This document shows positions 19,310-36,141 of a stretch of DNA of 64,000 bases, piece by piece (positions within the stretch are counted from its first letter, which is position 1; each line of letters opens with the position of its first letter). The notes under the pieces were generated by a model, which made no database searches, was not told the origin of the DNA, and was given only the letters and a program-made list of their open reading frames with translations. Source of the stretch: Candidatus Gygaella obscura. GTDB lineage: Bacteria > Omnitrophota > Gorgyraeia > Gygaellales > Gygaellaceae. The stretch is from contig JAVCCR010000003.1 of NCBI GenBank assembly GCA_030765485.1, positions 4,653-68,652 of the forward strand, in the 5' to 3' direction. A program made the translations under genes and the position numbers.

Positions 19310-19462
19310 TAATTTAACCAGGGCCATATCCTTATTATTTCCAAGAAGATATAAGGAAATTGTTCCTTTAGATTTAGCCGGTTATTAAATATTTAAAAAT
19401 CTTGCTTTTTTATTCTAGCTATATTATAATTTAGGTTAATTATTAATCAAGAAAGAATCGAT

Positions 19463-20753: not shown

Positions 20754-21719
20754 ATGAGCGGACTTGATTTTGAAAAACCAATTCTGGAATTAGAAAAAAA
20801 GATTGATGAACTGAGGAATTTTACAAGCGATAAGAAAATTAATCTTGCTTCTGAAATAAACCGTCTTGAGGAAAAATTAACCAGGCTTAAAAAAGATACC
20901 TACCGCAATATTACTCCCTGGCAGCGCGTACAGATTGCCAGACACCCGCAGCGACTTTACACCACTGATTACATAAATACGATAATGAAGAATTTTATTG
21001 AGTTGCATGGAGATCGTTTATTTGCCGACGATAAGGCTTTAATCGGAGGGTTGGCAACATTAGATGATAGAAAAGTTGTTGTTATGGGTCATCAAAAAGG
21101 ACGTGAAACCAAAGAAAGTATTATGCGTAATTTCGGTTGTGCTCATCCTGAAGGATACCGCAAGGCCTTAAGGTTGATGTATATGGCGCAGAAATTTAAT
21201 CTTCCGATTATTGTTTTTATCGATACCCCCGGAGCATATCCTGGTATTGGTGCTGAAGAAAGAGGTCAGGCGCAGGCAATAGCTTCTAATCTTATGGAGA
21301 TGGTAGAGATAAAAGTACCTATAATCGTTACTGTAATCGGTGAAGGCGGTTCAGGCGGCGCTTTAGGTGTGGGTATAGGAGATAAGATTTTGGTGTTGGA
21401 GAATTCTTATTATTCGGTTATTTCTCCTGAGGGGTGTGCAGCAATTCTTTGGAAAAGCAGCACCAAAGCGCCAGAGGCAGCTGATGCATTAAAGCTTACC
21501 GCAGAAGATTTACTAAAATTTAAGATTATTGATGAGATTGTACCCGAACCTTTAGGTGGAGTGCATAGGGATCCGCAGAAGATGTGTCAGACGCTTAAAG
21601 AAGCTATCATCAGGAATCTAAATTCTTTATCCGACTTATCTACAAAACAAATTCTGGATAGAAGATATAATAAGTTCAGAAAAATCGGCGACATAACTGA
21701 AAACGTACAAGATGCTTAA
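20754..21719 (+). CDS. accA: Acetyl-CoA carboxylase carboxyltransferase alpha subunit
   Basis: 321 aa with the conserved AccA core (…FIDTPGAYPGIGAEERGQAQAIA…GEGGSGGALG…). Confidence 0.85.
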   Translation: MSGLDFEKPILELEKKIDELRNFTSDKKINLASEINRLEEKLTRLKKDTYRNITPWQRVQIARHPQRLYTTDYINTIMKNFIELHGDRLFADDKALIGGLATLDDRKVVVMGHQKGRETKESIMRNFGCAHPEGYRKALRLMYMAQKFNLPIIVFIDTPGAYPGIGAEERGQAQAIASNLMEMVEIKVPIIVTVIGEGGSGGALGVGIGDKILVLENSYYSVISPEGCAAILWKSSTKAPEAADALKLTAEDLLKFKIIDEIVPEPLGGVHRDPQKMCQTLKEAIIRNLNSLSDLSTKQILDRRYNKFRKIGDITENVQDA

Positions 21720-22236
21720 TCAAGAGTTTATCATTTTAGGCCTGTTAAAGTCCGGTCCTCGCCATGGTTATGAAATCAAAAAAGAGCTAAAAGAAGTAGT
21801 TGGTTTATTTGCTACCATAACCAATAAGTCTATATATTATCCTTTAAAACAGATGGAAAAAGCAAAGGTGGTGAAAAAGAATATTTCTCGTGAGGGCTCT
21901 CGTCCTGAGAAATACACGTATACAATTACAGAGCAAGGAGAAAGAAGGTTTAAGGATCTTTTGTATAAGAATATCTCACGGCTTGAGCGGCCATTTTTCG
22001 ACATTGATATGTGTCTCTATTTTCTTCCCTTTTTGTCAAAAACTGAAGTTGTTAAAAGATTAAAGGTAAGGCTGAGGCTGCTTTCCAAGATAGAAAATTG
22101 GCTTAAGAAACAAGCTGGGCAAAAAGAAAAATACTACCCGCATCTTTCAGCAATAATCGAGCATAATCTTGATTTGATCATTTCTGAAACAGGTTTTACC
22201 AAAAAGCTAGTTAATAGATTAAGTAAGAATAAGTAG
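21712..22236 (+). CDS. PadR-family transcriptional regulator
   Basis: N-terminal PadR winged helix (ILGLLKSGPRHGYEIKKEL…YYPLKQMEKAKVV). Overlaps the accA stop. Confidence 0.7.
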   Translation: MLNQEFIILGLLKSGPRHGYEIKKELKEVVGLFATITNKSIYYPLKQMEKAKVVKKNISREGSRPEKYTYTITEQGERRFKDLLYKNISRLERPFFDIDMCLYFLPFLSKTEVVKRLKVRLRLLSKIENWLKKQAGQKEKYYPHLSAIIEHNLDLIISETGFTKKLVNRLSKNK

Positions 22237-22302
22237 ATAGATAAGTTTAAAATCACATAACCATTTAAAATCATTATAGTTTGGGGTTTGAATTAAAAAA
22301 AC

Positions 22303-22330
22303 TTGAAGATTTTTATTTTCCTTATATAAT
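22303..22330 (+). promoter_or_regulatory. Sigma70-type promoter of the 22367-33310 operon
   Basis: TTGAAG at 22303-22308, a 16-nt spacer, and a perfect TATAAT at 22325-22330. Confidence 0.45.
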
Positions 22331-22358
22331 AAAATTTAACTAATAAAATTTAATTAAT
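22331..22358 (+). repeat. Tandem 14-bp direct repeat (AAAATTTAACTAAT / AAAATTTAATTAAT) immediately downstream of the -10 box; candidate operator
   Basis: Two adjacent copies matching at 13 of 14 positions, located between the promoter and the ATG at 22367. Confidence 0.4.
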
Positions 22359-22366
22359 AAGATTCA

Positions 22367-23863
22367 ATGGACATAGCAAAACTTTTACAGGAATCAACAG
22401 ATAAGTATAAAGATAAGCCGGCAATATTTTTTAAGGGCAAAGAAATTACTTTTATTGAGTTAAGGGATAATGTGTTTAAGCTGACAAATGCCCTAGGCTC
22501 TTTAGGCCTAAAAAAACATGATAAGGTTGCTATATATCTTCCTAATTGTCCACAGTATATCTATACCTATTTGGCTATTTGGTGTAGTTGCGCCACGGCA
22601 GTACCGTTAGATTTTATGCTTACCGAAGAGGAGCTTATATCTTGTATAGACCACTCAGAAGCTAAAATTATTATTGCAAAGAAAAAGTCTAGGGTGTCTT
22701 TTTCTGATATAAAAAATAAATGTAAGTTGCTTCAAGAAGTAGTTCTTTTAGACGAGGGTGAAGAATTTGTCAATTTCAATATACTTTTAAATAATGTAAA
22801 AGAAGATTATCCTAAGGCTGAATGCAGTGATAAAGACTACTCTATAATTTTCTATACCTCCGGAACAACCGGGAAACCTAAAGGGGTTTTGATAAATTAT
22901 GCTCAGATAGCAGCACCGGCTATGGGGATGAAACATTTCGTGGGGCTTAATGATAAAGATATTGCGCTTTGTGCGATTCCTTTATCTCATTTGGGCGGGT
23001 TGGTGTTTTTGCAGTCAATAATCTTTTTAGGAACAACTGTTGTGTTGATGGAACGTTTTATGCCGGTTGAATTTTTAAAAAATATTACCGAGTATAAAGT
23101 AACCTGTTTTTGGATAGTGCCATCGATGTATTATGCGATTTTACAGCTTAAGGAATTTGAAAGTTATGATTTATCAAGTCTTCAATGGGTGGTTTCTTTT
23201 GGTGCGCCGAGCTCTGCAGAACAATTGAGGCGTTTTCACAAATATTGCCCGCAGGCTGAGTTTGTCAATGGTTGGGGAATGACTGAAACTAATGCGCCAA
23301 GCGTGGTGATTCCAAAAGGTAGTAAAAAGCTAGAAAGCGTTGGGCTTCCTGCTCCTTGGGTTGAACTTAAGATATTAGATAGCAATAATAAGGAAGTTAA
23401 AAAAACAGAAGTAGGAGAAATTGTTGTCAAAGGATGGGTGGTTACCGATGGCTATTATAAGGATGATGAGCTTACTAAACAGACCAAGCGTAATGGTTGG
23501 TTTTATACAGGAGATCTGGGTAGACTTGATACTGAAGGTTACCTGTATATATGTGGCCGCAAGAAAGAGATGATTAAAGTAGGAGGAGAAATAGTTTTTG
23601 AACCTGAGGTTGAGGCTGCTTTACATAAACATCCTGCTGTTAGCGAAGTGGCTGTAATTGGGGTGAAAGACAAATTAAGGACAGAGGTGCCTAAGGCCTT
23701 TATTGTTTTAAAAGAAGATACGCAGTTTGCAGAAGAAGAAATAGTATTTTTTCTAAAAAAGCATCTGGCCCATTTTAAGATTCCGCATTATTTTGAAGTT
23801 TTGGATACTCTTCCCAAGACCAGATCAGGTAAAGTTGATAAAAAAGTTTTAAGAGACAGATAA
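22367..23863 (+). CDS. AMP-dependent synthetase/ligase (acyl-CoA synthetase family)
   Basis: 498 aa with the AMP-binding motif YTSGTTGKPKGV, a GWGMTET motif, and the conserved C-terminal Lys of this family. Confidence 0.75.
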   Translation: MDIAKLLQESTDKYKDKPAIFFKGKEITFIELRDNVFKLTNALGSLGLKKHDKVAIYLPNCPQYIYTYLAIWCSCATAVPLDFMLTEEELISCIDHSEAKIIIAKKKSRVSFSDIKNKCKLLQEVVLLDEGEEFVNFNILLNNVKEDYPKAECSDKDYSIIFYTSGTTGKPKGVLINYAQIAAPAMGMKHFVGLNDKDIALCAIPLSHLGGLVFLQSIIFLGTTVVLMERFMPVEFLKNITEYKVTCFWIVPSMYYAILQLKEFESYDLSSLQWVVSFGAPSSAEQLRRFHKYCPQAEFVNGWGMTETNAPSVVIPKGSKKLESVGLPAPWVELKILDSNNKEVKKTEVGEIVVKGWVVTDGYYKDDELTKQTKRNGWFYTGDLGRLDTEGYLYICGRKKEMIKVGGEIVFEPEVEAALHKHPAVSEVAVIGVKDKLRTEVPKAFIVLKEDTQFAEEEIVFFLKKHLAHFKIPHYFEVLDTLPKTRSGKVDKKVLRDR

Positions 23864-23877
23864 AAGAGGGTTTAGCT

Positions 23878-24624
23878 ATGATGCAAAGAGAAATTCATAT
23901 TAGTTCTAAAGATTTATTGAGTCAAATCCAGTTTAAATCAAAACCTATGGCTGATATTGCTTTAGTCAGCGGTCAGATTCACCGAGTAGAGTTTTGTCTG
24001 CAGCTATTGACCGAGGTAAAAGAGAATTTTAGTACTATGGGATATACTTTTTGGACCGGAAAATATAAAGGTCGAAGTATTACTGTTGGTAATGCCGGTC
24101 TCTATGCACCAGATACGGCATTAGTGACACAGTTATTGATAGAAGCAGGGATAAATTCTTTTATTCGTATCGGTAGCTGCGGTGCTTTGACAAAGGATAT
24201 ACAGATAGCTGATTTTGTTATTGCTGATAAAGCTTTAAGAGGAGACGGCGTTACTAATTATTATGTTAAGAGTGATTTTATTCCTAAGTCTACGCCTGAG
24301 TTAAACAGCCGGTTAGCTGAAGCAATTATCTCCAAAGGAAAAAAGTTACATCAAGGTATGGTTTGGACAACAGATGCATTATTAAAAGAAACTCCTGAAT
24401 TTGTGAATCCGGCAATTACTAAAGGCGCAATAGCAGTAGATATGGTTACGAGCGCTTTTTTAACACTATGTTCTTTATATAATAAAACTTCAGCTGCGGT
24501 AATGGTGGTAAGCGATAATCTTATTACTGGTGAAGTTGATTTTACTTCGCCTGCGGTTATGGAATCGGAAAAAATAATGTTGGCTTCTAGTTTAGACGTA
24601 GCAGCGCAATTAGGAAATAGTTAA
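23878..24624 (+). CDS. Nucleoside phosphorylase, PNP/UDP family 1 (DeoD/Udp/MTA-phosphorylase-like); candidate MTA/5'-deoxyadenosine phosphorylase
   Basis: 248 aa with the NP-I family pattern (…GNAGLYAPDTA…IRIGSCGAL…). Sits directly upstream of an MtnA-family gene. Confidence 0.65.
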   Translation: MMQREIHISSKDLLSQIQFKSKPMADIALVSGQIHRVEFCLQLLTEVKENFSTMGYTFWTGKYKGRSITVGNAGLYAPDTALVTQLLIEAGINSFIRIGSCGALTKDIQIADFVIADKALRGDGVTNYYVKSDFIPKSTPELNSRLAEAIISKGKKLHQGMVWTTDALLKETPEFVNPAITKGAIAVDMVTSAFLTLCSLYNKTSAAVMVVSDNLITGEVDFTSPAVMESEKIMLASSLDVAAQLGNS

Positions 24625-25533
24625 ATGACTGAATCAATACTTGCATTACCGGTTAGGTTTAAAGGAAATTATATAGAGGTTTTAGATGAGACGCTCCTTC
24701 CTTTTAATGAAAAGTATATACGGGTAGATACATTAGAGTATGCTTTATCGGTTTTAGGTTCTATGAAAACAAGAGCAATGGGTCAGGTGCTTTTATTTTT
24801 TTACTCTTGTGTGCTTTTTGAAAAGAACAATTCAATTGATGAAATTGCAGGTAAATTCAAAGATATACGGCCTACATTTGATTTTATTCTTTTAGCGGAT
24901 CTAGTGAAAAAGGCTCTTGCAAAAGAAAAGAGCATAAAAAGCGCGGTAGAAAGTTTTATAAATGGTTTTCAAGATGCAAGACATAAAAGAGCTAAATCAT
25001 TAGCGTCGATATTGCCTGATGATGCGCGTGTTCTTACAATATGTAATGTTAATTCCGAGCTTATCTATCTGGCTGAGGAAATGCACAAGTTAAATAAGAA
25101 GATATTTTTTTATGTCTGTGAAACACGGCCATATCTTCAGGGAACGCGGCTTACTTTTTGGGAATTAAGAAAACGAGGTATTTCTTGTAAATTGATCTGT
25201 ATATCTCAATCTGCCAGTCTTATGCAGGAAGGTTCAATTAGTACAGTTATTACCGGAGCAGACAGATCCAGCACGAGAGGTGCAGTGATAAACAAAATCG
25301 GTACATATAGCCTGGCAATACTTGCCAAACATTTTAATATTGCTTTTTATCCTTTGGTGCAGTATGCGAAGGATATTGATATAGACGCAATTAAAATCGA
25401 AGAAAGAGCAAAGAGTGAAGTGTTTATGTTTTTAAAAGGGGATTTTGCCCACATGGATGCGCTTTACCCCGCGTTTGACGTTGTAGAAAAAGAATTGATT
25501 ACAAAAAACATAGATTTAACCAAATTAAACTAA
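24625..25533 (+). CDS. eIF-2B alpha/beta/delta-family protein, MtnA-like (methylthioribose-1-P / 5-deoxyribose-1-P isomerase family)
   Basis: 302 aa with eIF2B/MtnA family patterns (LDETLLP…, YVCETRPYLQGTRLT.WEL, VITGADRSS..GAVINKIGTYSLAILAKHFNIAFY). Starts 1 nt after the phosphorylase stop. Confidence 0.65.
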   Translation: MTESILALPVRFKGNYIEVLDETLLPFNEKYIRVDTLEYALSVLGSMKTRAMGQVLLFFYSCVLFEKNNSIDEIAGKFKDIRPTFDFILLADLVKKALAKEKSIKSAVESFINGFQDARHKRAKSLASILPDDARVLTICNVNSELIYLAEEMHKLNKKIFFYVCETRPYLQGTRLTFWELRKRGISCKLICISQSASLMQEGSISTVITGADRSSTRGAVINKIGTYSLAILAKHFNIAFYPLVQYAKDIDIDAIKIEERAKSEVFMFLKGDFAHMDALYPAFDVVEKELITKNIDLTKLN

Positions 25534-25545
25534 TTATAAGGAGAA

Positions 25546-27009
25546 ATGATGAAACTATTATTTTTAAATCCGCCAATCGGTTCATGGGTTTATTGGGGTA
25601 AACATAGAGCTATTAATGTTGCCCATGCTCAACTTACTGCTTGTATCAGAGAGTGGGTTAAAGAAGTAGATATTTCAGTTATTGACTGTCGTGCTTCGGA
25701 ATTGAAAGAAGAACAGATGATAGATAAAATTAAACAGATTTCACCCGATGTTATCTATATGGGCGATGCTTATCAGATGACTGGGACTGTTGCCATATTG
25801 CCGCTTTATCAAAAGGCTGCAAAACTTATTAAGAAGAACTTTCCCAATGTAAAAATCTGCGTAGGAGGTTTTTATATTGCAGCAAATTATGCAGAAATCT
25901 CAAAAGAAAGCCCTGATTTTGATTTTATTATTTCCGGAGAAGTAGACCTGACCTTGACCGAGCTAATACAGGCTTTAAAGAATAACGAGAAAGATTTTTC
26001 TAAAATCAAAGGCCTGCTTTATCGGGATAACGGTTCTTTTAAGACAAACGAGTACCGTGAGCTGATTAAAGATTTGGATACGCTTCCTATGCCGGCGTAT
26101 GATTTGTTTCCGATGGATAAATATATTGGTTATGGTTCAATGCCGTTTTATCAGGAGATTTTTACTGCCAGAGGCTGTCCTTTTGGCTGCGGCATGTGTA
26201 TAGATTGGGTTATAGTTGACCCAAGAGGTAACTGCGACTGGCAGCAGCATAGGTTTAAGTCTGCAGCCAGAGTCGTAGATGAGATGGAGCTACTTTTAAC
26301 TAAATACGGCAAAAAATATATCCATATATTCGATTTGAATTTTAACCCTGTTAGACGGCGCGTGGAAGAGTTCTTAAAAGAAATGCAGAAGAGAAAACTT
26401 CCCATAAAATATGCCTTTTTAGGCAATGCCCATTCCTTTGTTAGAGATAAGGATTTACTGAAAGATTTACGCGATACAGGGTTTGTCTGCGGTATATTCG
26501 GTCTTGAAGTGGAAGATGCTGAGACTCTGAAGAAAATCAAAAAAGGCATTACGGTGCAAAACGTGCATGAGGTTACCCAGTTATTTAGGGAATTAGGGAT
26601 TATGTCTACGATTACCTGGATGATTGGTTTTCCTGATGATGATGAAACTAAGATAAAAAGGCGTTTTGCAGTCTTAGATGAGATTGATCCTGATGTCTCA
26701 TCGCTTCAAATGATGCTTCCTGTTCCGGGTATACCTTTGTACGATGAATTTTCTCCATACGTGGAAGAGCATGATTTGATGAAGTGGGATTTTCATCATC
26801 CTATAGTTAGGACCAAGCATCTTACGCGCCAGCAGTTGGGTCAGTTAGCCGAATGGGCAAACAGAGAGTTTTACACTAAGAAAAACCGTATTCAGCGCAT
26901 CTTGGAAAGCAAGACCTTACATGAATATCCTAAGAATATATTCAAAAGTTATATGTTTAACTTAGAGAAATTCGCTAACGCAGCAACTAAAGAAGAGATT
27001 ATTATTTGA
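25546..27009 (+). CDS. Cobalamin (B12)-binding radical SAM enzyme
   Basis: 487 aa. N-terminal Rossmann-like B12-binding domain (…VIYMGDAYQMTGT…ICVGGFY…), then the radical SAM cluster motif CPFGCGMC (CxxxCxxC), then a C-terminal extension of the DUF4070 type. Confidence 0.8.
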   Translation: MMKLLFLNPPIGSWVYWGKHRAINVAHAQLTACIREWVKEVDISVIDCRASELKEEQMIDKIKQISPDVIYMGDAYQMTGTVAILPLYQKAAKLIKKNFPNVKICVGGFYIAANYAEISKESPDFDFIISGEVDLTLTELIQALKNNEKDFSKIKGLLYRDNGSFKTNEYRELIKDLDTLPMPAYDLFPMDKYIGYGSMPFYQEIFTARGCPFGCGMCIDWVIVDPRGNCDWQQHRFKSAARVVDEMELLLTKYGKKYIHIFDLNFNPVRRRVEEFLKEMQKRKLPIKYAFLGNAHSFVRDKDLLKDLRDTGFVCGIFGLEVEDAETLKKIKKGITVQNVHEVTQLFRELGIMSTITWMIGFPDDDETKIKRRFAVLDEIDPDVSSLQMMLPVPGIPLYDEFSPYVEEHDLMKWDFHHPIVRTKHLTRQQLGQLAEWANREFYTKKNRIQRILESKTLHEYPKNIFKSYMFNLEKFANAATKEEIII

Positions 27010-27028
27010 TTTTAAGAAAGTTACGCAT

Positions 27029-27520
27029 TTGAAAATCGATAATTTAAAAGAATCCATATTGGTTTGGGGCACATTATCCGATGAGGCGCTTATGTATTTA
27101 AAACAGCCCCAGAAAGATAACGCCTTAAACGTTATCGTTGCTGAGAATAGGCCATTTCTTTTAGGGATAAAATATAATGTCCTTAAGCTAAACAAGGAAA
27201 ATATTCCTTTTGTGTATTGTACGGATAACATGCTGGGGTTTTTATTTTATAGAAAGAAAATCTCTCAGGTGGTTATCTGCTATAAGAAAAAAGAAAAAAA
27301 GTCTCTGTTGGCAGATTCAGGAAGTCTTTTTGCTGTATTATTAGCAAAATTGCACAATGTAAAAGTTAGAGCTTTCCCGCAGGGAAATTTGGATTATTCA
27401 ACTTTAGATAAAAACAGCGCCACGCTTGATGGTAAAGCAATGCTTTTAGATGAGGATAAAGACTTTGTACAAGAAACAAAGGATGAATTAATAAAAGAGG
27501 AGTTTTATGAACATAACTGA
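27029..27520 (+). CDS. Degenerate MtnA/eIF2B-family paralog (C-terminal-half fragment lacking the GADR catalytic segment); possible pseudo-enzyme or gene remnant
   Basis: 163 aa with a TTG start. Retains family-like segments (…VAENRPFLLG…IPFVYCTDNMLGFLF…VVICYKK…LFAVLLAKLHNVKV.AF), but the GADR…NKIGTY core is replaced. Confidence 0.4.
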   Translation: MKIDNLKESILVWGTLSDEALMYLKQPQKDNALNVIVAENRPFLLGIKYNVLKLNKENIPFVYCTDNMLGFLFYRKKISQVVICYKKKEKKSLLADSGSLFAVLLAKLHNVKVRAFPQGNLDYSTLDKNSATLDGKAMLLDEDKDFVQETKDELIKEEFYEHN

Positions 27521-28496
27521 GCTTAAGAAACAGATAATCTATTGGGCTAGGCTTTTAAACGAGAGAGGTTTTGTTACAGCAAGAAGCGGTAATATTTCCT
27601 GTAGGTTAGAGGATAAGATTCTTATGACTAGTCACGATTCTTATTTAGGACAGTTAGAAGAGGATGAGATTGTTTTACTGGATTCAAAAGGAGCGATTAT
27701 AGAAGGAGAAAAAGAACCCACCAGCGAAAAGCCGCTTCATCTGGGGATTATGGAACATATTGATGAGGCAAAAGTGATTATACACGCACACAGCCCATTT
27801 ACCACTGCGTATTTTCATTATTTTAAAAAACTGGATATTTTTTCTTTTGAGGCTAAGTTTTATTTAGGAGAGATTAAGGTTATTCCGCAGTCTGGGCCTA
27901 CGGTTACAGATATAAATCCGGTAATTGAAGAGTTGATGAATAATAATATTGTTGTTTTAGGCAATCACGGCGTAGTTGCAATCGGTAAGGATTTTAAAAG
28001 TGCATTTAGTTTGGTCGAGCTTCTAGAAGAACAGTCCAAGATAAATTTGATGTTTTCTGGCAAGACTAAGGATTCTCCTTGCGTTGAAGAAGATAAACAA
28101 CAGATAGAGCATGTAGAAAAATCCTATTTCATGTTTTCACAGGAGCATATTCAAACAATAAAAGATATTATAAATAATGATACGCAGGCACAAGAGTTGG
28201 GTAAAAAGCATGATTTGACTTGTTCGCTTTGTGTTAAGGATATTGATGCCAAACAAGCAGTTTGTTTTTATTACCAGCAAGGCAAAATTACTAATACTGA
28301 TAATAATCCAGAAGCCGAATTTATTATTGCCGGTTCAACAGACATATTAAAGAAGATCTTTAACTGTAAAATTGACCCCTTTGTAGCTGTTACACAAGGT
28401 AAAGTTAAAACCAAAGGTGATATTAATAAAATCAGCCAATGGTATCCGGCACTTACTAGGACATTTAAACTTTGGGAACAGGTAAAAGTGGTTTAG
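27507..28496 (+). CDS. Class II aldolase/adducin-domain protein (Ald2/MtnB-like) fused to a C-terminal SCP2-like lipid-binding domain
   Basis: The N-terminal ~200 aa show the class II aldolase pattern (…VTARSGNIS…, Zn ligands in IIHAHSP…, …GNHGVVAIG). The C-terminal ~110 aa resemble SCP2 (…FIIAGSTDILKKIF.CKIDPFVAVTQGKVKTKGDINKI…). Overlaps the upstream ORF by 14 nt. Confidence 0.7.
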   Translation: MNITELKKQIIYWARLLNERGFVTARSGNISCRLEDKILMTSHDSYLGQLEEDEIVLLDSKGAIIEGEKEPTSEKPLHLGIMEHIDEAKVIIHAHSPFTTAYFHYFKKLDIFSFEAKFYLGEIKVIPQSGPTVTDINPVIEELMNNNIVVLGNHGVVAIGKDFKSAFSLVELLEEQSKINLMFSGKTKDSPCVEEDKQQIEHVEKSYFMFSQEHIQTIKDIINNDTQAQELGKKHDLTCSLCVKDIDAKQAVCFYYQQGKITNTDNNPEAEFIIAGSTDILKKIFNCKIDPFVAVTQGKVKTKGDINKISQWYPALTRTFKLWEQVKVV

Positions 28497-28540
28497 CGGT
28501 ATTTTAAGATTAATTTATTTACTGCAGGAATATATAAATA

Positions 28541-30892
28541 ATGAAAATTCTCGCCATAAGGTTTGCCCGGTTTATTATTAAATTCAGGCTTGTTTTTTTG
28601 GTTGCTTTTACTCTTATTTCAATATTTTTTTTTCAGGTTATAAAAGATATTACGTTTCAGACTGATATCGATGATTTTTATCCGCAGAAGCATCCCTTTG
28701 TTACTGTTCAGAATAAGCTCACCCAGGTTTTTGGTGGGATAAATCAGGTTTCCATTGCCCTAAAAGTAAAAGAAGGCGATATCTTAAATAGTGATACGCT
28801 TGAGAAGGTAATCCGTATTACCAATGAGCTGTATCTTATGGATGGGATAAACCTCGGACGGGTTACTTCTTTATCTGCCCGTAAGATAAAACACATCAAG
28901 GCAACAGAAGACGGGTTTTCCATTGACCGCGTATTAAGACAAGTGCCAAAAGATGAGCTGGAGATGATGGCATTACGAGATAGGATTGTTTTAAGTCCCA
29001 ATGTCTATATCCGTATGGTTTCGCAGGATTTTCAAAGTACGCTTATTCAGGCAGATTTTCAAAAAGGGGTGTCTTCAAAATATATCTTTGATAAGCTGCA
29101 GCAAATAAAACTTCAGGAAGAAAACGCCAATACGCAGATATTTTTAGCCGGTAGACCCATCCTTGAAGGTTGGCTTAATACATATCTGCCTAAGATGTTA
29201 AAGATACTTCTTTTGACTCTTTTGGTGGTTTCACTTATATTGTTTTTTACGTTTCGTTCCAAAAGAGGCGTATTCTTGCCGCTATTAGATTCATCTATGG
29301 CTACATTATGGGGTTTGGGAATGATGAAGCTTTTTGGCTTCAGGCTTGATCCAACAACAATACTGGTTCCATTTTTGATCCTGGCTTTAGGTATCAGCCA
29401 TTCGATTCATTTTATGAAGCATTATTATGAGGAGATGAAGCAAGAAAATAGAAAATCCAAGCATGCTGTACGCAGAACTCTGGAGGTATTATTTGTTCCG
29501 GCAATCACCGCAGTTATTACAGATGGGTTTGGTTTTTTAAGTTTGGCTTTTATTCCTTTAGATACTATTCGCAGTATGGCTCTGGCTGCAGGTTTTGGAA
29601 TTTTTAGCAATTTTCTTACTTCATTTATTTTTACGCCCTGTCTGATTTCTTATATGAAACCTCCCAAGGTGCTTGAGGTAGCCCGCGAAGAAGAACATCT
29701 TTTGATTGATAAACTCTTGTCACGGGTGGCGAATATTTCAACGCATAAGAGAACACGCGTGGTGTTAAGTTTAGTGTTTATATCAATCGTGGCCGTATCT
29801 TTATTTGGAATAAACAAGATTGTCGTTGGAGATAACTCTTTTGGCTCAAGCCATCTTTATCCCAACAGCCCCTATAATAAAAGTGACAAGTTTATAAATG
29901 ATAATTTCGGAGGCACTAATTCCTATTATGTGTTAGTTGACGGCCAAACAGAGGATAGCCTTATTGATTTAGATGCGCTTAAAAAAATCGATTCCCTCCA
30001 GCATTATATACTAAAGAATGTAAAAGAAGCAGGATACGCGGTATCTGTTTCTGATTATGTAAAGGGGTTAAACTTTGCTATGTTTTCCGGTGATAGAAAC
30101 TATTATAGGCTTCCGGAAAAAAGTCAAACCGTTGCTGAATATCTATTTCTTTATGAGATCTCGACTTATCCTGGAGATTTTGAACCAGTGATAACCGCTG
30201 ATTACTCCAAGGCGAATATAAAGTTTGATCTTAAAGACCATAGGCCTTCGACAATAGATAATGTTATTGCTAAGACAAGGCAGTGGATAGATGAGAATAT
30301 GTCTAAAGATGATGTCTTAAAGTTTGAATATGCTGCTGGTGAAATTGGAATGTTGGCGGCAATAAATGATATTATTGCCAAAAGCATAATTCCCAGCATC
30401 ATTTTTATATCAGCTTTAATTTTCGTATATATTTCCTACATATTCGGTTCTGTCAGCGCAGGGTTATTGTTATTGGTGCCGCTACTATTTAGTATTTTAG
30501 TTGTATTCGGGCTTTTTGGTTTAACGGGTATGCCTTTAACAACCGAGACTTTATCTTTAGCAGCATTAAGCGAAGGCCTAGGGATAAATTATGGCATATA
30601 TGTTATCACGCGGCTTTTCCAGGAGGTTAGGCGCAGGAAGCACCCTTCTTATGAAGAGGCATTAAAGGTAACCCTAGTTACATCTGGTAAGGCTGTATTT
30701 TTTAGCGGAATGATTGTTTCAATTGGAATTTTCGTGTGGCTGTTTTCTGATATCCGTCTGCAGGCAAGACTGGGAGTAACTTTAGGAGTTACTTTAATTA
30801 TAAACATGATAGCTGCACTTGTGATTCTACCTTTATTAATATTACTGGTGAAGCCGAAGTTTATTTTTGATATAGAAAAGTTTAAGTATTAA
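28541..30892 (+). CDS. MMPL/RND-superfamily exporter (HpnN-like, sterol-sensing-domain type)
   Basis: 783 aa with two blocks of about six TM helices, each preceded by a soluble periplasmic domain, and an SSD-like block (…FLILALGISHSIHFM…). Confidence 0.75.
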   Translation: MKILAIRFARFIIKFRLVFLVAFTLISIFFFQVIKDITFQTDIDDFYPQKHPFVTVQNKLTQVFGGINQVSIALKVKEGDILNSDTLEKVIRITNELYLMDGINLGRVTSLSARKIKHIKATEDGFSIDRVLRQVPKDELEMMALRDRIVLSPNVYIRMVSQDFQSTLIQADFQKGVSSKYIFDKLQQIKLQEENANTQIFLAGRPILEGWLNTYLPKMLKILLLTLLVVSLILFFTFRSKRGVFLPLLDSSMATLWGLGMMKLFGFRLDPTTILVPFLILALGISHSIHFMKHYYEEMKQENRKSKHAVRRTLEVLFVPAITAVITDGFGFLSLAFIPLDTIRSMALAAGFGIFSNFLTSFIFTPCLISYMKPPKVLEVAREEEHLLIDKLLSRVANISTHKRTRVVLSLVFISIVAVSLFGINKIVVGDNSFGSSHLYPNSPYNKSDKFINDNFGGTNSYYVLVDGQTEDSLIDLDALKKIDSLQHYILKNVKEAGYAVSVSDYVKGLNFAMFSGDRNYYRLPEKSQTVAEYLFLYEISTYPGDFEPVITADYSKANIKFDLKDHRPSTIDNVIAKTRQWIDENMSKDDVLKFEYAAGEIGMLAAINDIIAKSIIPSIIFISALIFVYISYIFGSVSAGLLLLVPLLFSILVVFGLFGLTGMPLTTETLSLAALSEGLGINYGIYVITRLFQEVRRRKHPSYEEALKVTLVTSGKAVFFSGMIVSIGIFVWLFSDIRLQARLGVTLGVTLIINMIAALVILPLLILLVKPKFIFDIEKFKY

Positions 30893-30908
30893 AAAACAGG
30901 AGGGGAGC

Positions 30909-31805
30909 ATGAGGAGTTTGTTGATGAAGAGTTTGTTGTTAGTGTGTTGTGTTTTTGTTTTTGTTGTTAATGGTTTTGCTATGGAGTTTAAGCAGCATGA
31001 GGTTTATAAGATCACTGATGGTATGAACGCAGAAGAAATCATAGGGGTGTCTACTTTTAATAAATATACCAAGTTTGCCTATGATTATGAGTCAACCGGA
31101 TATGTCCACCTGATTGAAAAAAGCGGGGCAAAGAGACAAAGAACTTTTTTACGCCGCAGGATTATTTTGGGGGATAAGTTAGCCAAAATTGATTATAAGG
31201 ATGTTACCAGTTTCACTGCTCCCACATCAGTTAAGGGTTTAGGTATTTTAAGTTGGACCTATATGACCTATGGGCAGGATTCGGATCAGTGGTTATGGAT
31301 CCCATCACTTAAGAAAATTCGTAAGGTTTCAGCTGCTCAAGGTGATGATTCTTTTATGGGTTCAGATTTTACCACAGAAGAAGTCACCACAAGAAAAGTA
31401 GAGGATGAGACCTACAAATTATTAAGGCAAGAAAAGTTCACCGGCTATACATCAAGTTTTAATGGTAAAATCTATTATAAGGATGCAGATTGTTTTGTTA
31501 TAGAGGCAACTCCTGTAAGAGATCCTTGGTATTATTCTAAAAGAATCGTCTGGGTGGAAAAAACTACAGGTGGCGATATCTATGAAGAGATTTATGACGC
31601 TAATGGCAGGAAATATAAATATATCCTTAAAGAATACCAGATTAAAGACGTTAATGGACGCGACTATTCAGTGCAGACGCATCTTGAGGTAGAGGACCTG
31701 CGTTCGAATCACAAGACTGTCATTGAAATAAAGGGTATCAAGTTTGATCAGGGTCTAAAAGAGAGTGACTTTAGTGAAAGAATCCTGCAGAGGTCAAAAT
31801 GGTAA
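30909..31805 (+). CDS. LolA-like outer-membrane lipoprotein-sorting-family protein
   Basis: 298 aa with a signal peptide and a beta-rich body typical of the LolA-like proteins commonly encoded next to MMPL exporters. Confidence 0.55.
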   Translation: MRSLLMKSLLLVCCVFVFVVNGFAMEFKQHEVYKITDGMNAEEIIGVSTFNKYTKFAYDYESTGYVHLIEKSGAKRQRTFLRRRIILGDKLAKIDYKDVTSFTAPTSVKGLGILSWTYMTYGQDSDQWLWIPSLKKIRKVSAAQGDDSFMGSDFTTEEVTTRKVEDETYKLLRQEKFTGYTSSFNGKIYYKDADCFVIEATPVRDPWYYSKRIVWVEKTTGGDIYEEIYDANGRKYKYILKEYQIKDVNGRDYSVQTHLEVEDLRSNHKTVIEIKGIKFDQGLKESDFSERILQRSKW

Positions 31806-31819
31806 TAAAAGGAGTAAGT

Positions 31820-33310
31820 ATGAGGAAGAAAATTGTTTTATTTATAATCTTAGTGTTTGTGGTTTTGGGTGTAACCATGAATAGTTATGCTCAAATGGAT
31901 CAGGCGTTTGTCTATGAAGCATTGCGCAAAGTCTTGCCTTTTGAAAAACTAGAGATGGCCGGGTACTTAAAAAACGAGACATCTCTTAAGATGGCGCATG
32001 GCATGGATGAATTTATGAAGTTTAAGAATATTGTTAACTTGCAGGCTAATTACAATATTAAAGATAATGTTGATTTTTTTACCACGATTAGGTGGTTCCA
32101 TGATGGAGTCTATAGTCTGGAAGAGTCTAGATATACATCGATTGATTCCAAGGAGAAAAATCGGAAACTCAAATTCCCTGAGAAGATGCTTTGGTTAAGG
32201 GATTGCTTTGTGGATATCTATACAGATAGATTGGATATCCGTGCCGGTAAACAGCAGGTTGTCTGGGGTACAGCAGATGGGATCAGAATATTAGATATGA
32301 TCAATCCTTTAGATTACAGCGAGTGGACTTTGCCGAATTACTCTGATATCAGGATTCCTTTATGGATGCTTAATATTGAAGGTGAACTTTTAGCAGACGG
32401 ACATTTGCAGGTTTTATTGATTCCTGATTATCAGGCTAATTATTACGGCCCGGTAGGAGGTCCGTTTACCTTAAGGACGGTGGAATTGGGCGCAAAAAGC
32501 CTTAATGCTTTGCCGCCATTTGTTACTACAACAACAATAAGTGAGCGTCCTAAGCGCAATTTTGAGAATACAAAGCTAGGGCTTCGCTGGCGTAATGTTA
32601 TTGGCGCAGGTTACGCTCAGGGGTTAGAATACACGCTTAATTATTATCACGGTTATGATTTTGCATCTGCAGCCTATACTGCAGTAAAAATTGTTCCCGG
32701 AGGATACTTTAAGTTGACCCGTAGAGCAGAGGGAATTGATGTCTTTGGCGGAACGTTTTCTAAAACTGTTACAAACGGTGCGTTTGGTATTCCTGCACTT
32801 TTTAAGGGTTGGACTGTAAGAGGCGAGTATGCCTGGATTACGCATGGAGCAATGAATTATGGAACTGATGCCAATATCGTAGGTACTGTAGATGTGGATC
32901 AGTTTAATTATGTTTTAGGTTTTGATAAGAATTTTTGGACCAATTGGCTTTTTAGTTTTCAGTTTATCCAGATGAACGCTAAGGAAACTGAGGAGTTCAA
33001 TAAGGATTCCTACGTTTTATTAAATGGCGCTACCCGTGGTTCATTAGGAGATCAGGAAACAACCCTAAGTCTTAAAATTTCAACTGATTTTATGCATGAG
33101 AGAGTCAAGCCGGAAGTTTTAATTCTTCATACGGTCGGCAGTGAGAAATCCGACCGAGATTGGAGGATAAGCCCGAAAGTCAGTTTTGAAATCAATGACC
33201 GCTGGCAAATAGCGGCCGGAGCGCATATCTTTGAGGGAGAGGAACAGCTTTTAAGCGGTCAGTTTGATAAAAACGACCAGGTATTCTTTGAGACAAAGTA
33301 TAGTTTCTAA
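31820..33310 (+). CDS. Putative outer-membrane beta-barrel protein (DUF1302-like)
   Basis: Signal peptide, alternating amphipathic beta pattern rich in aromatics and Gly, and a C-terminal ...YSF. Start placed at the ATG following the AAGGAG SD; the ORF extends to 31799 in frame and overlaps the upstream gene. Confidence 0.45.
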   Translation: MRKKIVLFIILVFVVLGVTMNSYAQMDQAFVYEALRKVLPFEKLEMAGYLKNETSLKMAHGMDEFMKFKNIVNLQANYNIKDNVDFFTTIRWFHDGVYSLEESRYTSIDSKEKNRKLKFPEKMLWLRDCFVDIYTDRLDIRAGKQQVVWGTADGIRILDMINPLDYSEWTLPNYSDIRIPLWMLNIEGELLADGHLQVLLIPDYQANYYGPVGGPFTLRTVELGAKSLNALPPFVTTTTISERPKRNFENTKLGLRWRNVIGAGYAQGLEYTLNYYHGYDFASAAYTAVKIVPGGYFKLTRRAEGIDVFGGTFSKTVTNGAFGIPALFKGWTVRGEYAWITHGAMNYGTDANIVGTVDVDQFNYVLGFDKNFWTNWLFSFQFIQMNAKETEEFNKDSYVLLNGATRGSLGDQETTLSLKISTDFMHERVKPEVLILHTVGSEKSDRDWRISPKVSFEINDRWQIAAGAHIFEGEEQLLSGQFDKNDQVFFETKYSF

Positions 33311-33320
33311 ATAGATAAAC

Positions 33321-33359
33321 AAAAAAAGACCCCGCCTATTAATTTAAGCGGGGTTTTTT
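33321..33359. terminator. Bidirectional rho-independent terminator
   Basis: A7-ACCCCGC-(12 nt loop)-GCGGGGT-T6, sitting between convergent genes that end at 33310 and 33375. Confidence 0.6.
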
Positions 33360-33374
33360 GTTATTCGAGAGTTT

Positions 33375-33764
33375 TTAAATTTTGTTTGAATCTAAGACAG
33401 TGTTAATTTTTTCTGCCAGGCCTTTAAGGTGGTCTCTTTTGCGCAGTTTTACTCTTACGGATTTATCCCCATCAATAAATTTATTTAAATCCTCTTCAAT
33501 ACGAAATAGCGCTCCAAAGGTTCTGTTGGACATAACAATAATAAAATAAACCAGTATTACAAATATAATCATATATCCTGATAGAAACCCCAGGTAAAAA
33601 CTCCTGATGAATTTTACCGGGTCCTTGGTGAAAAAATGAGCGTTGTTAAGCATGCTCCAGAAATACCAGTGGGTTATTCCAGCTGCTAAGATTATCAAGG
33701 CGATAACTATTAAGACATATTTAAGCTGTAGTCCGTTAATGATGTATTTGCTTCTTTTGCTCAT
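33375..33764 (-). CDS. Small 2-TM membrane protein with HAMP-like C-terminal segment (paralog of the 13662-14123 gene)
   Basis: 129 aa with a basic N-terminus, two hydrophobic helices, then …FGALFRIEEDLNKFIDGDK…KLRKRDHLKGLAEKINTVLD, sharing the pattern of ORF 13662..14123. Confidence 0.45.
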   Translation of the reverse strand: MSKRSKYIINGLQLKYVLIVIALIILAAGITHWYFWSMLNNAHFFTKDPVKFIRSFYLGFLSGYMIIFVILVYFIIVMSNRTFGALFRIEEDLNKFIDGDKSVRVKLRKRDHLKGLAEKINTVLDSNKI

Positions 33765-33787
33765 GACTAACTCCTTTTTTAATTATG

Positions 33788-33870
33788 TGCCGAAGGTGGG
33801 AGTTGAACCCACACGAGGTTACCCTCATCGGTTTTTGAGACCGACGTGTATGCCATTCCACCACTTCGGC
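33788..33870 (-). tRNA. tRNA-Leu (anticodon CAA), type II with long variable arm
   Basis: The reverse complement reads GCCGAAGTGGTGGAATGGCATACACGTCGGTCTCAAAAACCGATGAGGGTAACCTCGTGTGGGTTCAACTCCCACCTTCGGCA. It has a 7-bp acceptor stem, a CTCAAAA anticodon loop and a GGTTCAACTCC T-arm, and closely matches E. coli tRNA-Leu(CAA). The CCA end is not encoded. Confidence 0.85.
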
Positions 33871-33875
33871 AAAAC

Positions 33876-34625
33876 TTACTTCTTGTCCTTACCCATAAAA
33901 ACCTTCATGAGTTCTAAAGGTAATGGGAAAATTATCGTTGATGTCTTTTCTGATGAAATCTCCACAAGAGTTTGTAAATATCTCATCTGCAAAGCTATGG
34001 GTTGCTTGGCTACGTTTTCGGCTGCAGCAACGAGCTTTTCTGAAGCCTGGTATTCGGCTTCTGCACCAATTATCTTTGCTCTACGTTCACGTTCTGCCTC
34101 AGCTTGTTTGGCCATGGCCCGCTGCATTTCTTGAGGAAGGTCAACGTGTTTGATTTCTACATTGGAAACTTTTACTCCCCAGGGGTCAGTTGCCCTATCG
34201 ATTATTTCCTGTAACTGGTTATTTATTTTTTCCCGTTCTGATAAAAGTTCATCTAATTGCACTTGGCCGACAATGCTTCTTAAAGAGGTTTGCGCCATTT
34301 GAGAGGTGGCAAACATAAAATCTTCAACTTCCGTTATAGCCTTGTTGGGATCAATTACCCTAAAATACACAACAGCATTTACTTTAACCGAAACGTTATC
34401 CCTAGTAATTATATCCTGAGAAGGAACATCTAAGGTGATAATTCTTAAACTTATACGCACAGCCTTATCTAGAGGGATAAAGACAAATATAATTCCCGGG
34501 CCTTTAGGAACTGAAACAAGCCGTCCTAAGCGAAATATTACTGCTCGCTCGTACTCTTTTAAAATCTTAATGCAGTTTGATAGGTACAAAACTACAAAGA
34601 CTAGAATCATTATGGAAAAAGGCAT
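33876..34625 (-). CDS. SPFH/band-7 (stomatin-like) membrane protein
   Basis: 249 aa with an N-terminal TM helix, an SPFH core (…[21 protein letters not shown]…) and a C-terminal coiled coil ([17 protein letters not shown]). Confidence 0.8.

Positions 34626-36065: not shown

Positions 36066-36141
<76 letters not shown>

Follow-up and report, generated by a model that had tools for sequence, protein, structure and literature searches.

In a stretch of 64,000 nucleotides (below called the window) from Candidatus Gygaella obscura, a member of the Omnitrophota (assembly GCA_030765485.1, contig JAVCCR010000003.1, positions 4,653 to 68,652 of the forward strand), we analyzed a gene that encodes a class II aldolase domain fused to a C-terminal SCP2 domain, together with the operon surrounding it. 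All coordinates given here are those of the window. The fusion gene (27507..28496, plus strand) constitutes a single open reading frame (ORF) of 329 amino acids plus stop, which starts with ATG. A Shine-Dalgarno sequence (GAGGAG) was found 4 nucleotides 5' of the start codon and the frame involves zero internal stops; on the opposite strand, stop codons are abundant. The translated protein is 100% identical with MDP8259496.1 from the same organism, which carries merely the database name 'class II aldolase/adducin family protein'. When we searched the protein against Pfam, residues 9-180 matched Aldolase_II (E=1.1e-34, 120 bits, gathering score 22.2) and residues 220-310 matched SCP2 (E=3.6e-6, 27.7 bits, gathering score 21.3). 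The class II aldolase domain (27531..28046, plus strand, residues 9-180) carries the residues N29, T72/S73/E74, H93, H95, and H154. It is followed by a linker of variable length and poor conservation (28059..28130, plus strand, residues ~185-208; gappy alignment columns 195-225) and by the SCP2 domain (28131..28493, plus strand, residues ~209-329), which was recognized by Pfam, by the domain model, and by Foldseek. A first-pass annotation of this DNA had proposed such a one-gene fusion of a class II aldolase with an SCP2-like domain and had quoted motifs from it. All of these motifs were found in the translated ORF (VIIHAHSPFTT at residues 90-100, LGNHGVVAIG at 151-160, FIIAGSTDILKKIFNCKIDPFVAVTQGKVKTKGDINKI at 272-309), and the two Pfam matches, both above their gathering scores, the uninterrupted frame, and the fold models bear the proposal out. 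No stop codon separates the two domains, and the same single-gene arrangement is found in more than 100 relatives.

The full-length AlphaFold2 model reached a predicted local distance difference test (pLDDT) score of 90.3 and a predicted template modeling (pTM) score of 0.85, and disorder was confined to residues 188-199 of the linker (pLDDT <50). For the C-terminal domain, which was modeled separately, a pLDDT of 93.3 was obtained. When this domain was compared with the PDB by Foldseek, the Thermus SCP2 protein 2cx7 came first (template modeling (TM) score 0.81, root-mean-square deviation 2.2 Å), followed by the C-domains of the alkylsulfatases PisA1/SdsA1, UbiJ-SCP2, and the SCP2-like domain of MFE-2. 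All 39 matches at E<=1e-3 were SCP2 proteins or SCP2-like domains. Taken together, the hidden Markov model match and the predicted fold confirm the C-terminal region as an SCP2 domain. With the whole model as query, Foldseek returned FucA, DrdA, and YgbL at TM scores of ~0.8 (FucA/DrdA ~0.83), and TqaM and pyruvic oxime dioxygenase were also among the proteins that share the fold of the aldolase domain.

For inspection of the active site, E. coli FucA (its sequence was checked to be identical to 1FUA) was aligned with residues 1-197 of the fusion protein (24% identity). Here, we found that N29, S71/S72/E73, H92, H94, and H155 of FucA correspond to N29, T72/S73/E74, H93, H95, and H154 of the fusion protein, and in an alignment of 32 homologues N29, E74, H93, H95, and H154 are invariant. 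Among the phosphate-site residues, N29 and T72/S73 are conserved, and T43/G44 of FucA are replaced by H43, which is invariant, and D44. From the FucA mutants of Joerger and coworkers (2000), Y113, F131, and the mobile tail with F206/Y209 are said to line the aldehyde side. None of these aldehyde-subsite residues of FucA type (Y113', F131, F206'/Y209' tail) is kept in the fusion protein. Y113 is replaced by F114 (at least 90% in the family), which is located next to the invariant E115, F131 is replaced by the invariant P131, and residues 187-215 of FucA, including F206 and Y209, give way to linker plus SCP2 domain, and of FucA only residues 1-186 are covered when it is aligned with the family profile. 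DrdA (6BTD, 81 bits), the nearest solved sequence relative, retains both the Tyr and the Phe. Judged from these alignments, the half-site for dihydroxyacetone phosphate (DHAP) and the metal appears to be conserved and the aldehyde half to be rebuilt, with the SCP2 domain placed where the aldehyde-capping tail would be.

Comparison with curated models yielded no match above a cut-off. The best models were FucA_Meth (117 bits, cut-off 250) and ribulose-1-phosphate aldolase (59 bits, cut-off 300), and it should be considered that NCBIfam may contain no model for DrdA or Ald2. The second-best NCBIfam match was 3-oxo-tetronate-4-phosphate decarboxylase (103 bits), and models for MtnB and AraD matched as well, all of them far under their cut-offs. 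The MtnB model (TIGR03328) gave no full-length match, but aligned to residues 14-116 only (66 bits vs 137). The first-pass annotation had called the aldolase half 'Ald2/MtnB-like'. The first part of this label stands and the second has to be dropped, since by these scores and alignments the aldolase half looks FucA/DrdA/Ald2-like rather than MtnB-like.

To define the spread of the architecture, we searched 5.8 billion proteins and obtained 220 relatives; in all, the fusion is carried by more than 200 protein clusters. The best 120 of these 220 are all single-ORF fusions of 322-370 residues with 49-100% identity over the full length, and nearly all of them come from metagenome-assembled genomes (MAGs) of Omnitrophota, plus Candidatus Desulfofervidus. 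In the alignment of 32 homologues both domains are strongly conserved, with a gappy linker between them. An exhaustive phmmer search of 1.84 billion representatives with the SCP2 domain alone returned 70 proteins only, the majority of which are ~320-340 residues long and carry the domain at ~205-330. Distant SCP2 relatives that we tested (24-28% identity) again combined Aldolase_II with SCP2 or Alkyl_sulf_C. Because most of the 70 matches share the same architecture and the distant ones do likewise, this SCP2 subtype appears to be almost confined to the aldolase fusion. A word-index search with the SCP2 part alone was of no further use, as only fragments of the same family came back. In a neighbor-joining tree of the aldolase domains, which is of low resolution, the deepest branches are all fused, DrdA lies outside on a long branch, and seven SCP2-less relatives (191-209 residues; loci L047-L054) are nested at several points within the fused clade. 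Since the deepest branches are fused and the SCP2-less relatives are nested, the fusion seems to be ancestral and the SCP2 domain lost secondarily; by this tree the fusion would be old and conserved. The taxonomic survey indicated that the architecture recurs mainly in Omnitrophota MAGs and also in other phyla, and the surrounding gene set, which is best represented in Omnitrophota, was also found in Candidatus Desulfofervidus and in Deferribacterota and Fibrobacterales MAGs. Omnitrophota are almost entirely uncultured, and Candidatus Desulfofervidus is a partner of methane-oxidizing archaea.

Two candidate variants of the architecture were rejected. A 127-residue SCP2-only protein on a 27-kilobase contig (P0122, locus L058) had been considered as a natural gene split, but tblastn finds the aldolase domain just upstream in another frame and the adjoining Amidohydro_2 gene is truncated too, which points to a frameshifted or degraded copy. 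Similarly, a protein of 694 residues (P0133, from the representative library) had been considered as a fusion of a radical SAM enzyme with aldolase and SCP2. It carries Radical_SAM_N2, B12-binding, truncated Radical_SAM, Aldolase_II, and SCP2 domains, and the truncation together with an aldolase part that starts at profile position 43 points to a chimeric call or a deletion. Three further loci deserve mention in their own right. L060 (10001-12177) and L061 (5356-7532) contain a fused homologue that is very distant, with 24% identity in its SCP2 part. A 409-residue AMP-binding enzyme overlaps it, and CobS, BtuFCD-like, CbiA, and CbtAB genes of cobalamin/cobalt uptake and cobalamin biosynthesis are found a few genes away. 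Locus L062 (LR991655.1, labeled Candidatus Methanoperedenaceae archaeon, 6658-19461) contains a bacterial operon of the type found in the window, complete with LolA-like and DUF1302 outer-membrane components, in which the MMPL gene and the MtnA-like gene are each in two pieces. The archaeal label and the broken genes suggest mis-binning, horizontal transfer, or decay.

In the window, the fusion gene is a member of a cluster of tightly packed genes on the plus strand, which extends from a PadR-family regulator to a DUF1302 gene. Immediately upstream of the fusion gene lies a gene for a truncated MtnA/IF-2B paralogue of 163 residues (27029..27520; IF-2B E=6e-9, profile positions 108-212), here called sIF2B, which overlaps the aldolase start by 14 nucleotides. 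It corresponds to residues 181-264 of MtnA 1T9K, and the RP-x-L-x-G phosphate motif is present but the catalytic GADR Asp is absent. Members of this family measure 147-183 residues and occur, for example, in L001 (9543-10019), in L002 (9546-10004), and in 40 other loci. Because the GADR Asp is missing and the gene is almost always translationally coupled to the aldolase-SCP2 gene, these data suggest that sIF2B may serve as non-catalytic subunit of the isomerase or the aldolase. Further upstream, a B12-binding radical SAM enzyme is encoded (25546..27009; Radical_SAM and B12-binding domains), which carries its CxxxCxxC motif in ARGCPFGCGMC. Its best curated matches are BchE at 205 bits and HpnJ at 140 bits (cut-offs 481 and 578, respectively), and its nearest structures are CysS and TokK (46-51 bits); to all four the relationship is distant. 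The preceding gene (24625..25533; IF-2B E=3e-40) codes for an MtnA-like sugar-1-phosphate isomerase of the IF-2B family that retains the catalytic Cys (TICN) and Asp (GADR); MtnA models reached 149-160 bits, which is under their cut-offs, and the nearest structures are MtnA 1T9K and 2YRF.

A phosphorylase-like enzyme of the PNP_UDP_1 family and of the hexameric DeoD/MTAP type (23878..24624; Pfam E=5e-35), below referred to as PNP, precedes the isomerase. Its nearest solved structure is the methylthioadenosine (MTA) phosphorylase (MTAP) of Sulfolobus (1JDS, 96 bits). In the family formed by the window protein and 21 homologues a conserved D-M-V-T is found in place of the ribose-binding E-M-E motif and the Arg of the neighboring subunit is lost; the catalytic SDN Asp and the remaining Arg residues of the phosphate site are retained. 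The next gene upstream (22367..23863; AMP-binding E=1e-84) encodes an AMP-forming acyl-CoA/acyl-AMP ligase of the FadD-like medium/long-chain type, which scored 446 bits with the long-chain-fatty-acid-CoA ligase model PRK06187 (cut-off 476) and 256 bits with acetate-CoA ligase (cut-off 729). PNP, the MtnA-like protein, and the aldolase all score far under the cut-offs of the housekeeping equivalogs. The first gene of the cluster is that of the PadR-family regulator (21712..22236; Pfam PadR E=1e-15), which is also present in L005, L009, and L014. A sigma-70-like promoter candidate (TTGAAG-16-TATAAT, 22303..22330, plus strand, 10/12 matches) is located in the 130-nucleotide gap before the ligase gene; in our promoter and terminator scans the overall counts were at chance level, with promoter sites not above shuffled expectation.

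Downstream of the fusion gene, we found the MMPL gene that had been mentioned in the first-pass annotation (28541..30892). It encodes a resistance-nodulation-division (RND) transporter of the MMPL/HAE3 family with a sterol-sensing-domain-like region (MMPL E=7e-36, Sterol-sensing E=7e-10, TIGR00921 HAE3 203 bits). A periplasmic LolA-like/DUF1329 protein (30909..31805; LolA_like E=4e-43, DUF1329 E=3e-11; AmeB-like) and a DUF1302 outer-membrane protein (31799..33310; E=5e-24; AmeA-like) conclude the cluster. Between its last gene and the convergent downstream gene there is a GC-rich hairpin with a T-run on the minus strand (33329..33354; 10 pairs, 6 of them G-C, then CTTTTTTT). Control by a SAM or cobalamin riboswitch was considered and rejected, since Rfam gave no credible match at 21000-34000 and, over the entire window, only two transfer RNAs (tRNAs). 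A horizontal island was also discarded, as the GC content is uniform (0.34-0.39) across the window.

The remaining window looks like an ordinary diderm chromosome with accA, leuS, secA, lnt, murJ, and bamD-like genes. An SPFH/NfeD gene pair, which follows closely on the 3' side of the cluster, is flanked by the two tRNA genes (33788-33870, minus strand; 36066-36138, plus strand). Region 56065-58269 (minus strand) encodes a 733-residue protein, of which residues 276-398 form a spermine/spermidine synthase domain. Enzymes of this type make MTA, and a possible role as substrate source for a route resembling the DHAP shunt may be considered. At 6491-13660 (plus strand) a MoxR-type AAA_3 ATPase, a DUF58 protein, a 943-residue ORF without Pfam match, and a 719-residue Big_2 protein are encoded, and this region looks like a BatA-like/MoxR-associated operon with a large unannotated member. 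Finally, the genes of a MarR regulator, an outer-membrane efflux protein (OEP), and an AcrB-type RND pump overlap mutually at 14242-19309 (plus strand), and no ORF of at least 100 residues for a periplasmic adaptor was found between or beside them.

To compare gene neighborhoods, 66 loci were fetched and their ORFs were sorted with the window proteins as seeds and by all-against-all clustering. Co-occurrence was counted in 50 non-redundant fused loci; these counts ignore shared ancestry and include three loci that had been found via the radical SAM enzyme. Here, sIF2B and the MtnA-like isomerase were present in 43/50 loci each, an aldehyde dehydrogenase (ALDH) in 37/50, the radical SAM enzyme in 36/50, PNP and an ACMSD-type Amidohydro_2 protein in 21/50 each, the exporter genes in 20-22/50, and the AMP ligase in 16/50. 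The spacing between sIF2B and the aldolase gene was measured in 40 loci, and in 38 of them the two genes abut or overlap. In type A clusters, to which the window belongs, the ligase, the radical SAM enzyme, PNP, the MtnA-like isomerase, sIF2B, the aldolase-SCP2 protein, (ALDH), and the exporter are combined. Type B clusters begin with a ketosynthase (KS), a KS resembling a chain-length factor (CLF; active-site Cys replaced by Ser), an acyl carrier protein (ACP), a cyclase, an SRPBCC protein, a major facilitator superfamily (MFS) transporter, and a ketoreductase (KR), and continue with the radical SAM enzyme, Amidohydro_2, (Aminotran_4), the MtnA-like isomerase, sIF2B, the aldolase-SCP2 protein, and ALDH; occasionally an LsrF-type thiolase plus Zn-dependent alcohol dehydrogenase (Zn-ADH) and the exporter are added. 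The block of KS, CLF-like KS, ACP, PF04199 cyclase, SRPBCC, MFS, and KR was found directly upstream of the radical SAM gene in 12-17 Omnitrophota loci (e.g., L004 1-5263, L033, L041, L064 307-8838, L066 1456-8990). The Fibrobacterales cluster places two adenylating enzymes and a carrier protein before the cassette. In a Deferribacterota MAG, the bare six genes for the radical SAM enzyme, PNP, MtnA, sIF2B, aldolase/SCP2, and ALDH lie amid unrelated genes. The series of phosphorylase, isomerase, aldolase, and ALDH is complete in L002, L006, L063, L065, and others. As best NCBIfam models of ALDH we obtained the non-acylating, oxidizing betaine-, aminobutyr-, and phenylacetaldehyde dehydrogenases, and its LuxC-family matches were weak.

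Beside the seven SCP2-less relatives we found none of the genes for the radical SAM enzyme, MtnA, sIF2B, and ALDH (Fisher p 1e-5 to 4e-4, not phylogeny-corrected), and the frequencies of PNP, ligase, and exporter did not differ between SCP2-less and fused loci. Since the SCP2-less relatives lack these four genes, the SCP2 domain appears to be retained exactly where the radical SAM cassette is present. The first-pass annotation had suggested a hydrophobic substrate or product and had pointed to the exporter. The genomic context strengthens the case for such a compound, which may be linked to the exporter. SCP2 co-varies with the radical SAM enzyme, the isomerase, and the dehydrogenase and not with MMPL. 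In L052, PNP and a short aldolase form a plain pair. Locus L054 has no radical SAM gene; here, overlaps join the genes for PNP and aldolase to those for the ligase and MMPL in one translationally coupled operon.

Two accessory gene sets of type B clusters were looked at in more depth. Amidohydro_2 (with Aminotran_4) had been a candidate for replacing PNP, as a nucleosidase or adenosine deaminase. This role was rejected, as the nearest solved structures are the decarboxylases ACMSD, LigW, and IDCase, and it appears more likely that the protein belongs to the KS/CLF/ACP block as its tailoring decarboxylase. A DeoC-family protein scored 354 bits with the LsrF thiolase model (cut-off 297) and is accompanied by a Zn-ADH. 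This pair follows the aldolase or ALDH gene in seven type B operons (L001 12836-14712, L019, L021, L028, L031, L032, L040). Oxidation of 5-deoxyribulose-1-phosphate at C4 would give the type of substrate that LsrF uses, so that the pair could constitute an aldolase-independent route to DHAP and an acyl-CoA.

Starting from the observed architecture, the catalytic residues, the remodeled aldehyde subsite, the cassette, and its co-variation with SCP2, we consider it likely that the enzyme is a DHAP-releasing aldolase which, within the cassette, acts on a ribulose-1-phosphate derived from SAM or an adenosyl nucleoside. It would be a metal-dependent aldolase of the DrdA/Ald2/FucA type, in which the mobile C-terminal tail has been swapped for SCP2. 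For the full scheme, in which a 5-substituted 5-deoxyribulose-1-phosphate originating from an adenosyl adduct (adenosyl group from SAM or adenosylcobalamin) is cleaved to DHAP and a hydrophobic aldehyde held by SCP2, we give a probability of roughly 0.4. In a first step, the B12-dependent radical SAM enzyme would join an adenosyl group to a hydrophobic acceptor, which would yield a 5'-C-substituted 5'-deoxyadenosine. The MTAP-like phosphorylase would then take off adenine to give a 5-substituted 5-deoxyribose-1-phosphate, and the MtnA-like isomerase, probably together with sIF2B, would convert this sugar to the ribulose-1-phosphate form. In the fourth step, the aldolase would split the ketose to DHAP and R-CH2-CHO, with SCP2 holding the hydrophobic R. 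The ALDH, which is adjacent in most relatives, would oxidize the aldehyde to R-CH2-COOH and thereby render the cleavage irreversible. As the aldol equilibrium favors condensation (PMC6079011), an oxidizing ALDH next door fits the direction of cleavage. Finally, activation of the acid by the FadD-like ligase would be followed by incorporation of the product into an envelope lipid or polyketide, or by its export as such a compound, via the MMPL/LolA-like/DUF1302 proteins. On balance, a hydrophobic molecule would be extended by two carbons (carboxymethyl) at the cost of one adenosyl group. We infer every substrate and the direction of the pathway, and this holds above all for step 1. The scheme is further supported by the precedents of fluoroacetate synthesis and SinC, by the coupled operon of L054, by the low scores of PNP, MtnA, and the aldolase with housekeeping models, and by the canonical MTAP that has been reported in most Omnitrophota of the class Gorgyraeia. 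Still more tentatively, the cassette might constitute a pathway of radical C2-extension. A hydrophobic acceptor (fatty acyl, polyketide, or the like) would be C-adenosylated by the B12-dependent radical SAM enzyme, in the way SinC treats arginine, and dedicated, diverged enzymes of the DHAP shunt would leave C5'-C4' behind as -CH2-CHO/-CH2-COOH. SCP2 and the inactive MtnA paralogue would then adapt sugar-phosphate enzymes to a lipid-tailed substrate, and the HAE3/LolA-like/DUF1302 system would export the product, an envelope lipid.

Several observations weigh against this extension scheme. There is no ALDH gene in the window, and about 40% of the operons, which contain no phosphorylase gene, must borrow one. 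The co-occurrence counts lose some of their weight owing to their disregard of shared ancestry and to the three loci found via the radical SAM gene. Some distant fused genes stand alone (L045, L046, L059). A search with curated models detected no similarity of the radical SAM enzyme to the adenosylating enzymes HpnH and MqnE, and its best characterized relatives are BchE, HpnJ, and methylases. No gene for a corrinoid adenosyltransferase was found among the conserved neighbors. Lastly, the clusters of L064 and L066 (Candidatus Velamenicoccus archaeovorus CP019384 and a related MAG) contain the polyketide synthase (PKS) block, a decarboxylase-like gene, and the radical SAM gene (45-46% identity), but genes for isomerase, aldolase, and ALDH were not found in them, and this pattern is what salvage of a by-product would predict.

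Such a salvage function is the main alternative and is somewhat less probable than the extension scheme. Here, the radical SAM enzyme would modify a lipid or polyketide and free 5'-deoxyadenosine, which is inhibitory, and PNP, the MtnA-like isomerase, the aldolase, ALDH, and the ligase would act as a DHAP shunt within the cluster to DHAP and acetaldehyde, acetate, and acetyl-CoA. SCP2 would not bind the substrate of the aldolase, but would either tether the salvage enzyme to the radical SAM enzyme or present the lipid to it. The gene set equals that of the DHAP shunt/5-deoxyribose salvage (PMC6079011), and the nearest relatives point the same way, with DrdA for the aldolase and MTA phosphorylase for PNP. 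L064/L066, which keep the PKS block and the radical SAM gene without the isomerase-aldolase module, the plain pair in L052, the solitary fused genes of distant lineages, the missing corrinoid adenosyltransferase among conserved neighbors, and the lack of similarity to HpnH or MqnE also fit salvage, and the LsrF-like thiolase with its Zn-ADH could turn 5-deoxyribulose-1-phosphate into DHAP and acetyl-CoA. However, salvage offers no reason for a lipid domain on the aldolase instead of the radical SAM enzyme and leaves the remodeled aldehyde subsite without explanation. The ligase is FadD-like rather than acetate-CoA-ligase-like, and five of the six genes of the free-standing cassette would only clear a by-product. 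Moreover, L054 couples PNP and aldolase to a ligase and a lipid exporter in the absence of a radical SAM gene, and SCP2 is retained only alongside the radical SAM cassette. To our knowledge, there is no three-step salvage of 5'-deoxyadenosine dedicated within biosynthetic clusters, which also counts against this explanation.

A biosynthetic direction of the pathway is clearly less probable. In this case, the ligase and an acyl-reducing dehydrogenase would make a fatty or polyketide aldehyde, SCP2 would present it for condensation with DHAP, isomerase and phosphorylase would lead on to a 5'-alkyl nucleoside or a polyol lipid, and the radical SAM enzyme would tailor the product before export. 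Condensation is favored at equilibrium, DrdA tolerates many aldehydes, the genes are just as collinear with the steps in the reverse direction (L014, L002), LuxC-family models match the ALDH weakly, and C5'-extended adenosines such as sinefungin occur naturally. In contrast, the best ALDH matches are non-acylating and oxidizing, the free-standing cassette lacks a ligase or another aldehyde source, and a phosphorylase working in synthesis and a late radical SAM step are both ad hoc.

It is even more improbable that the fold carries out other chemistry on an SCP2-bound hydrophobic substrate (decarboxylase of OtnC/NovR type, dehydratase of MtnB type, epimerase of AraD type), with a different role for the MtnA and PNP neighbors, since the matches that speak for it (3-oxo-tetronate-4-phosphate decarboxylase as second-best NCBIfam model with 103 bits, MtnB, AraD) are far under their cut-offs and MtnB covers half of the domain, and since, despite the fold shared with YgbL, TqaM, and pyruvic oxime dioxygenase and the Phe in place of FucA Tyr113, the metal and Glu residues of DHAP aldolases and N29 of the phosphate site are invariant and, among these chemistries, only aldol cleavage of a ketose-1-phosphate agrees with the phosphorylase-isomerase-ALDH context. 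Hopanoid and ladderane readings were rejected, as all Hpn and ladderane radical SAM models scored far under their cut-offs.

In the literature collection that was searched, we found no paper in which a class II aldolase is joined with SCP2, in line with the first-pass annotation, which was not aware of this fusion in characterized MtnB/Ald2/FucA enzymes. The cluster is not mentioned in the Omnitrophota genome and biosynthetic gene cluster papers that were searched, one of which notes 'ladderane-like' antiSMASH calls. The enzyme families are known, but no description was found of the fusion architecture, of the inactive isomerase paralogue, or of the cassette. No matter whether the cassette extends a lipid or salvages a by-product, the present annotations ('class II aldolase/adducin family protein', 'L-fuculose-phosphate aldolase', 'anaerobic Mg-protoporphyrin cyclase') either carry little information or are wrong. 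If the extension scheme is true, it would represent a new way of C-C bond formation at an unreactive carbon, by which a lipid or polyketide acquires a carboxyl handle of two carbons, with the adenosyl group as disposable carbon donor. C-adenosylation of the SinC type, the DHAP shunt, and trimming as in fluoroacetate formation would be linked in one pathway, and an unknown envelope lipid or metabolite would be expected in the nearly uncultured Omnitrophota. If salvage is true, the cluster would be an example of by-product salvage hard-wired to one radical SAM enzyme. Under the extension scheme, the SCP2 domain would provide an experimental handle, since a co-purifying ligand would name the substrate.

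Among known systems, the DHAP shunt/5-deoxyribose salvage converts 5'-deoxyadenosine or MTA to DHAP and a small aldehyde (PMC6079011). With its aldolase DrdA/Ald2 (6BTD; PMC6079011) the fusion protein shares the class II fold, the His3-Glu metal site, and part of the phosphate site, and in both cases the gene clusters with a phosphorylase and an MtnA-type isomerase. In contrast to DrdA/Ald2, to which it is ~21-22% identical, the fusion protein carries 145 residues of linker and SCP2 in place of the C-terminal helix and tail, the Tyr/Phe of the aldehyde subsite are Phe/Pro, and the gene is paired with sIF2B (43/50) and usually with a B12-dependent radical SAM enzyme and ALDH. Unlike in E. coli FucA (1FUA), Y113, F131, and the F206/Y209 tail are changed or absent, T43/G44 have become H43/D44, and the gene lies outside a fucose-utilization context.

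In the fluoroacetate pathway, a phosphorylase, an isomerase, a fuculose-type aldolase, and ALDH act on SAM-derived 5'-fluoro-5'-deoxyadenosine and produce fluoroacetate via fluoroacetaldehyde (PMC3999930). The same families in the same order would perform the four steps from a 5'-X-5'-deoxyadenosine to X-CH2-CHO and X-CH2-COOH. However, no member of the fluorinase/chlorinase family was found among the window genes or the conserved neighbors. The cassette has the B12-dependent radical SAM enzyme in first position, the aldolase bears SCP2, and genes for a lipid ligase, an exporter, and PKS are attached. SinC is a B12-dependent radical SAM enzyme that transfers C5' of adenosine from adenosylcobalamin onto an unactivated sp3 carbon of arginine (bioRxiv 10.64898/2026.05.21.726688). 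With the radical SAM enzyme of the cassette it has the broad enzyme class in common, and its activity demonstrates that enzymes of this class are able to link C5' of adenosine to an unactivated carbon. Sinefungin retains the nucleoside, whereas the cassette would degrade it, and the sin cluster encodes a corrinoid adenosyltransferase, whereas none was found among the conserved neighbors of the fused genes. The hopanoid enzymes HpnH/HpnG/HpnJ/HpnN are similar in concept, with adenosylation of a lipid by a radical SAM enzyme, removal of adenine by a PNP-superfamily enzyme, a B12-dependent radical SAM enzyme, and an HAE3 exporter. However, the scores for HpnG (38 vs 187 bits), HpnJ (140 vs 578), and HpnN (83 vs 752) were low, HpnH gave no match, and hopanoid biosynthesis has neither an isomerase nor an aldolase step.

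The exporter set resembles the AmeABCD HAE3 exporter of Castellaniella (PMC6394551), where genes for MMPL/HAE3, LolA-like/DUF1329, and DUF1302 proteins also occur together (AmeD/AmeB/AmeA), and the DUF1302/DUF1329/RND sets of Pseudomonas. The AmeABD-type exporter handles hydrophobic compounds (PMC6394551). Unlike in AmeABCD, no AmeC/BNR-type fourth component was seen and the exporter genes are interleaved with those of nucleoside-processing enzymes. The C-terminal domain finally shares the SCP2 fold with SdsA1/PisA1, the SCP2-like domain of MFE-2, and UbiJ/UbiT. In the alkylsulfatases, MFE-2, and UbiJ/UbiT, SCP2 recruits or holds a hydrophobic substrate for the attached or partner enzyme. In the fusion protein, unlike in those enzymes, the partner is a sugar-phosphate aldolase.

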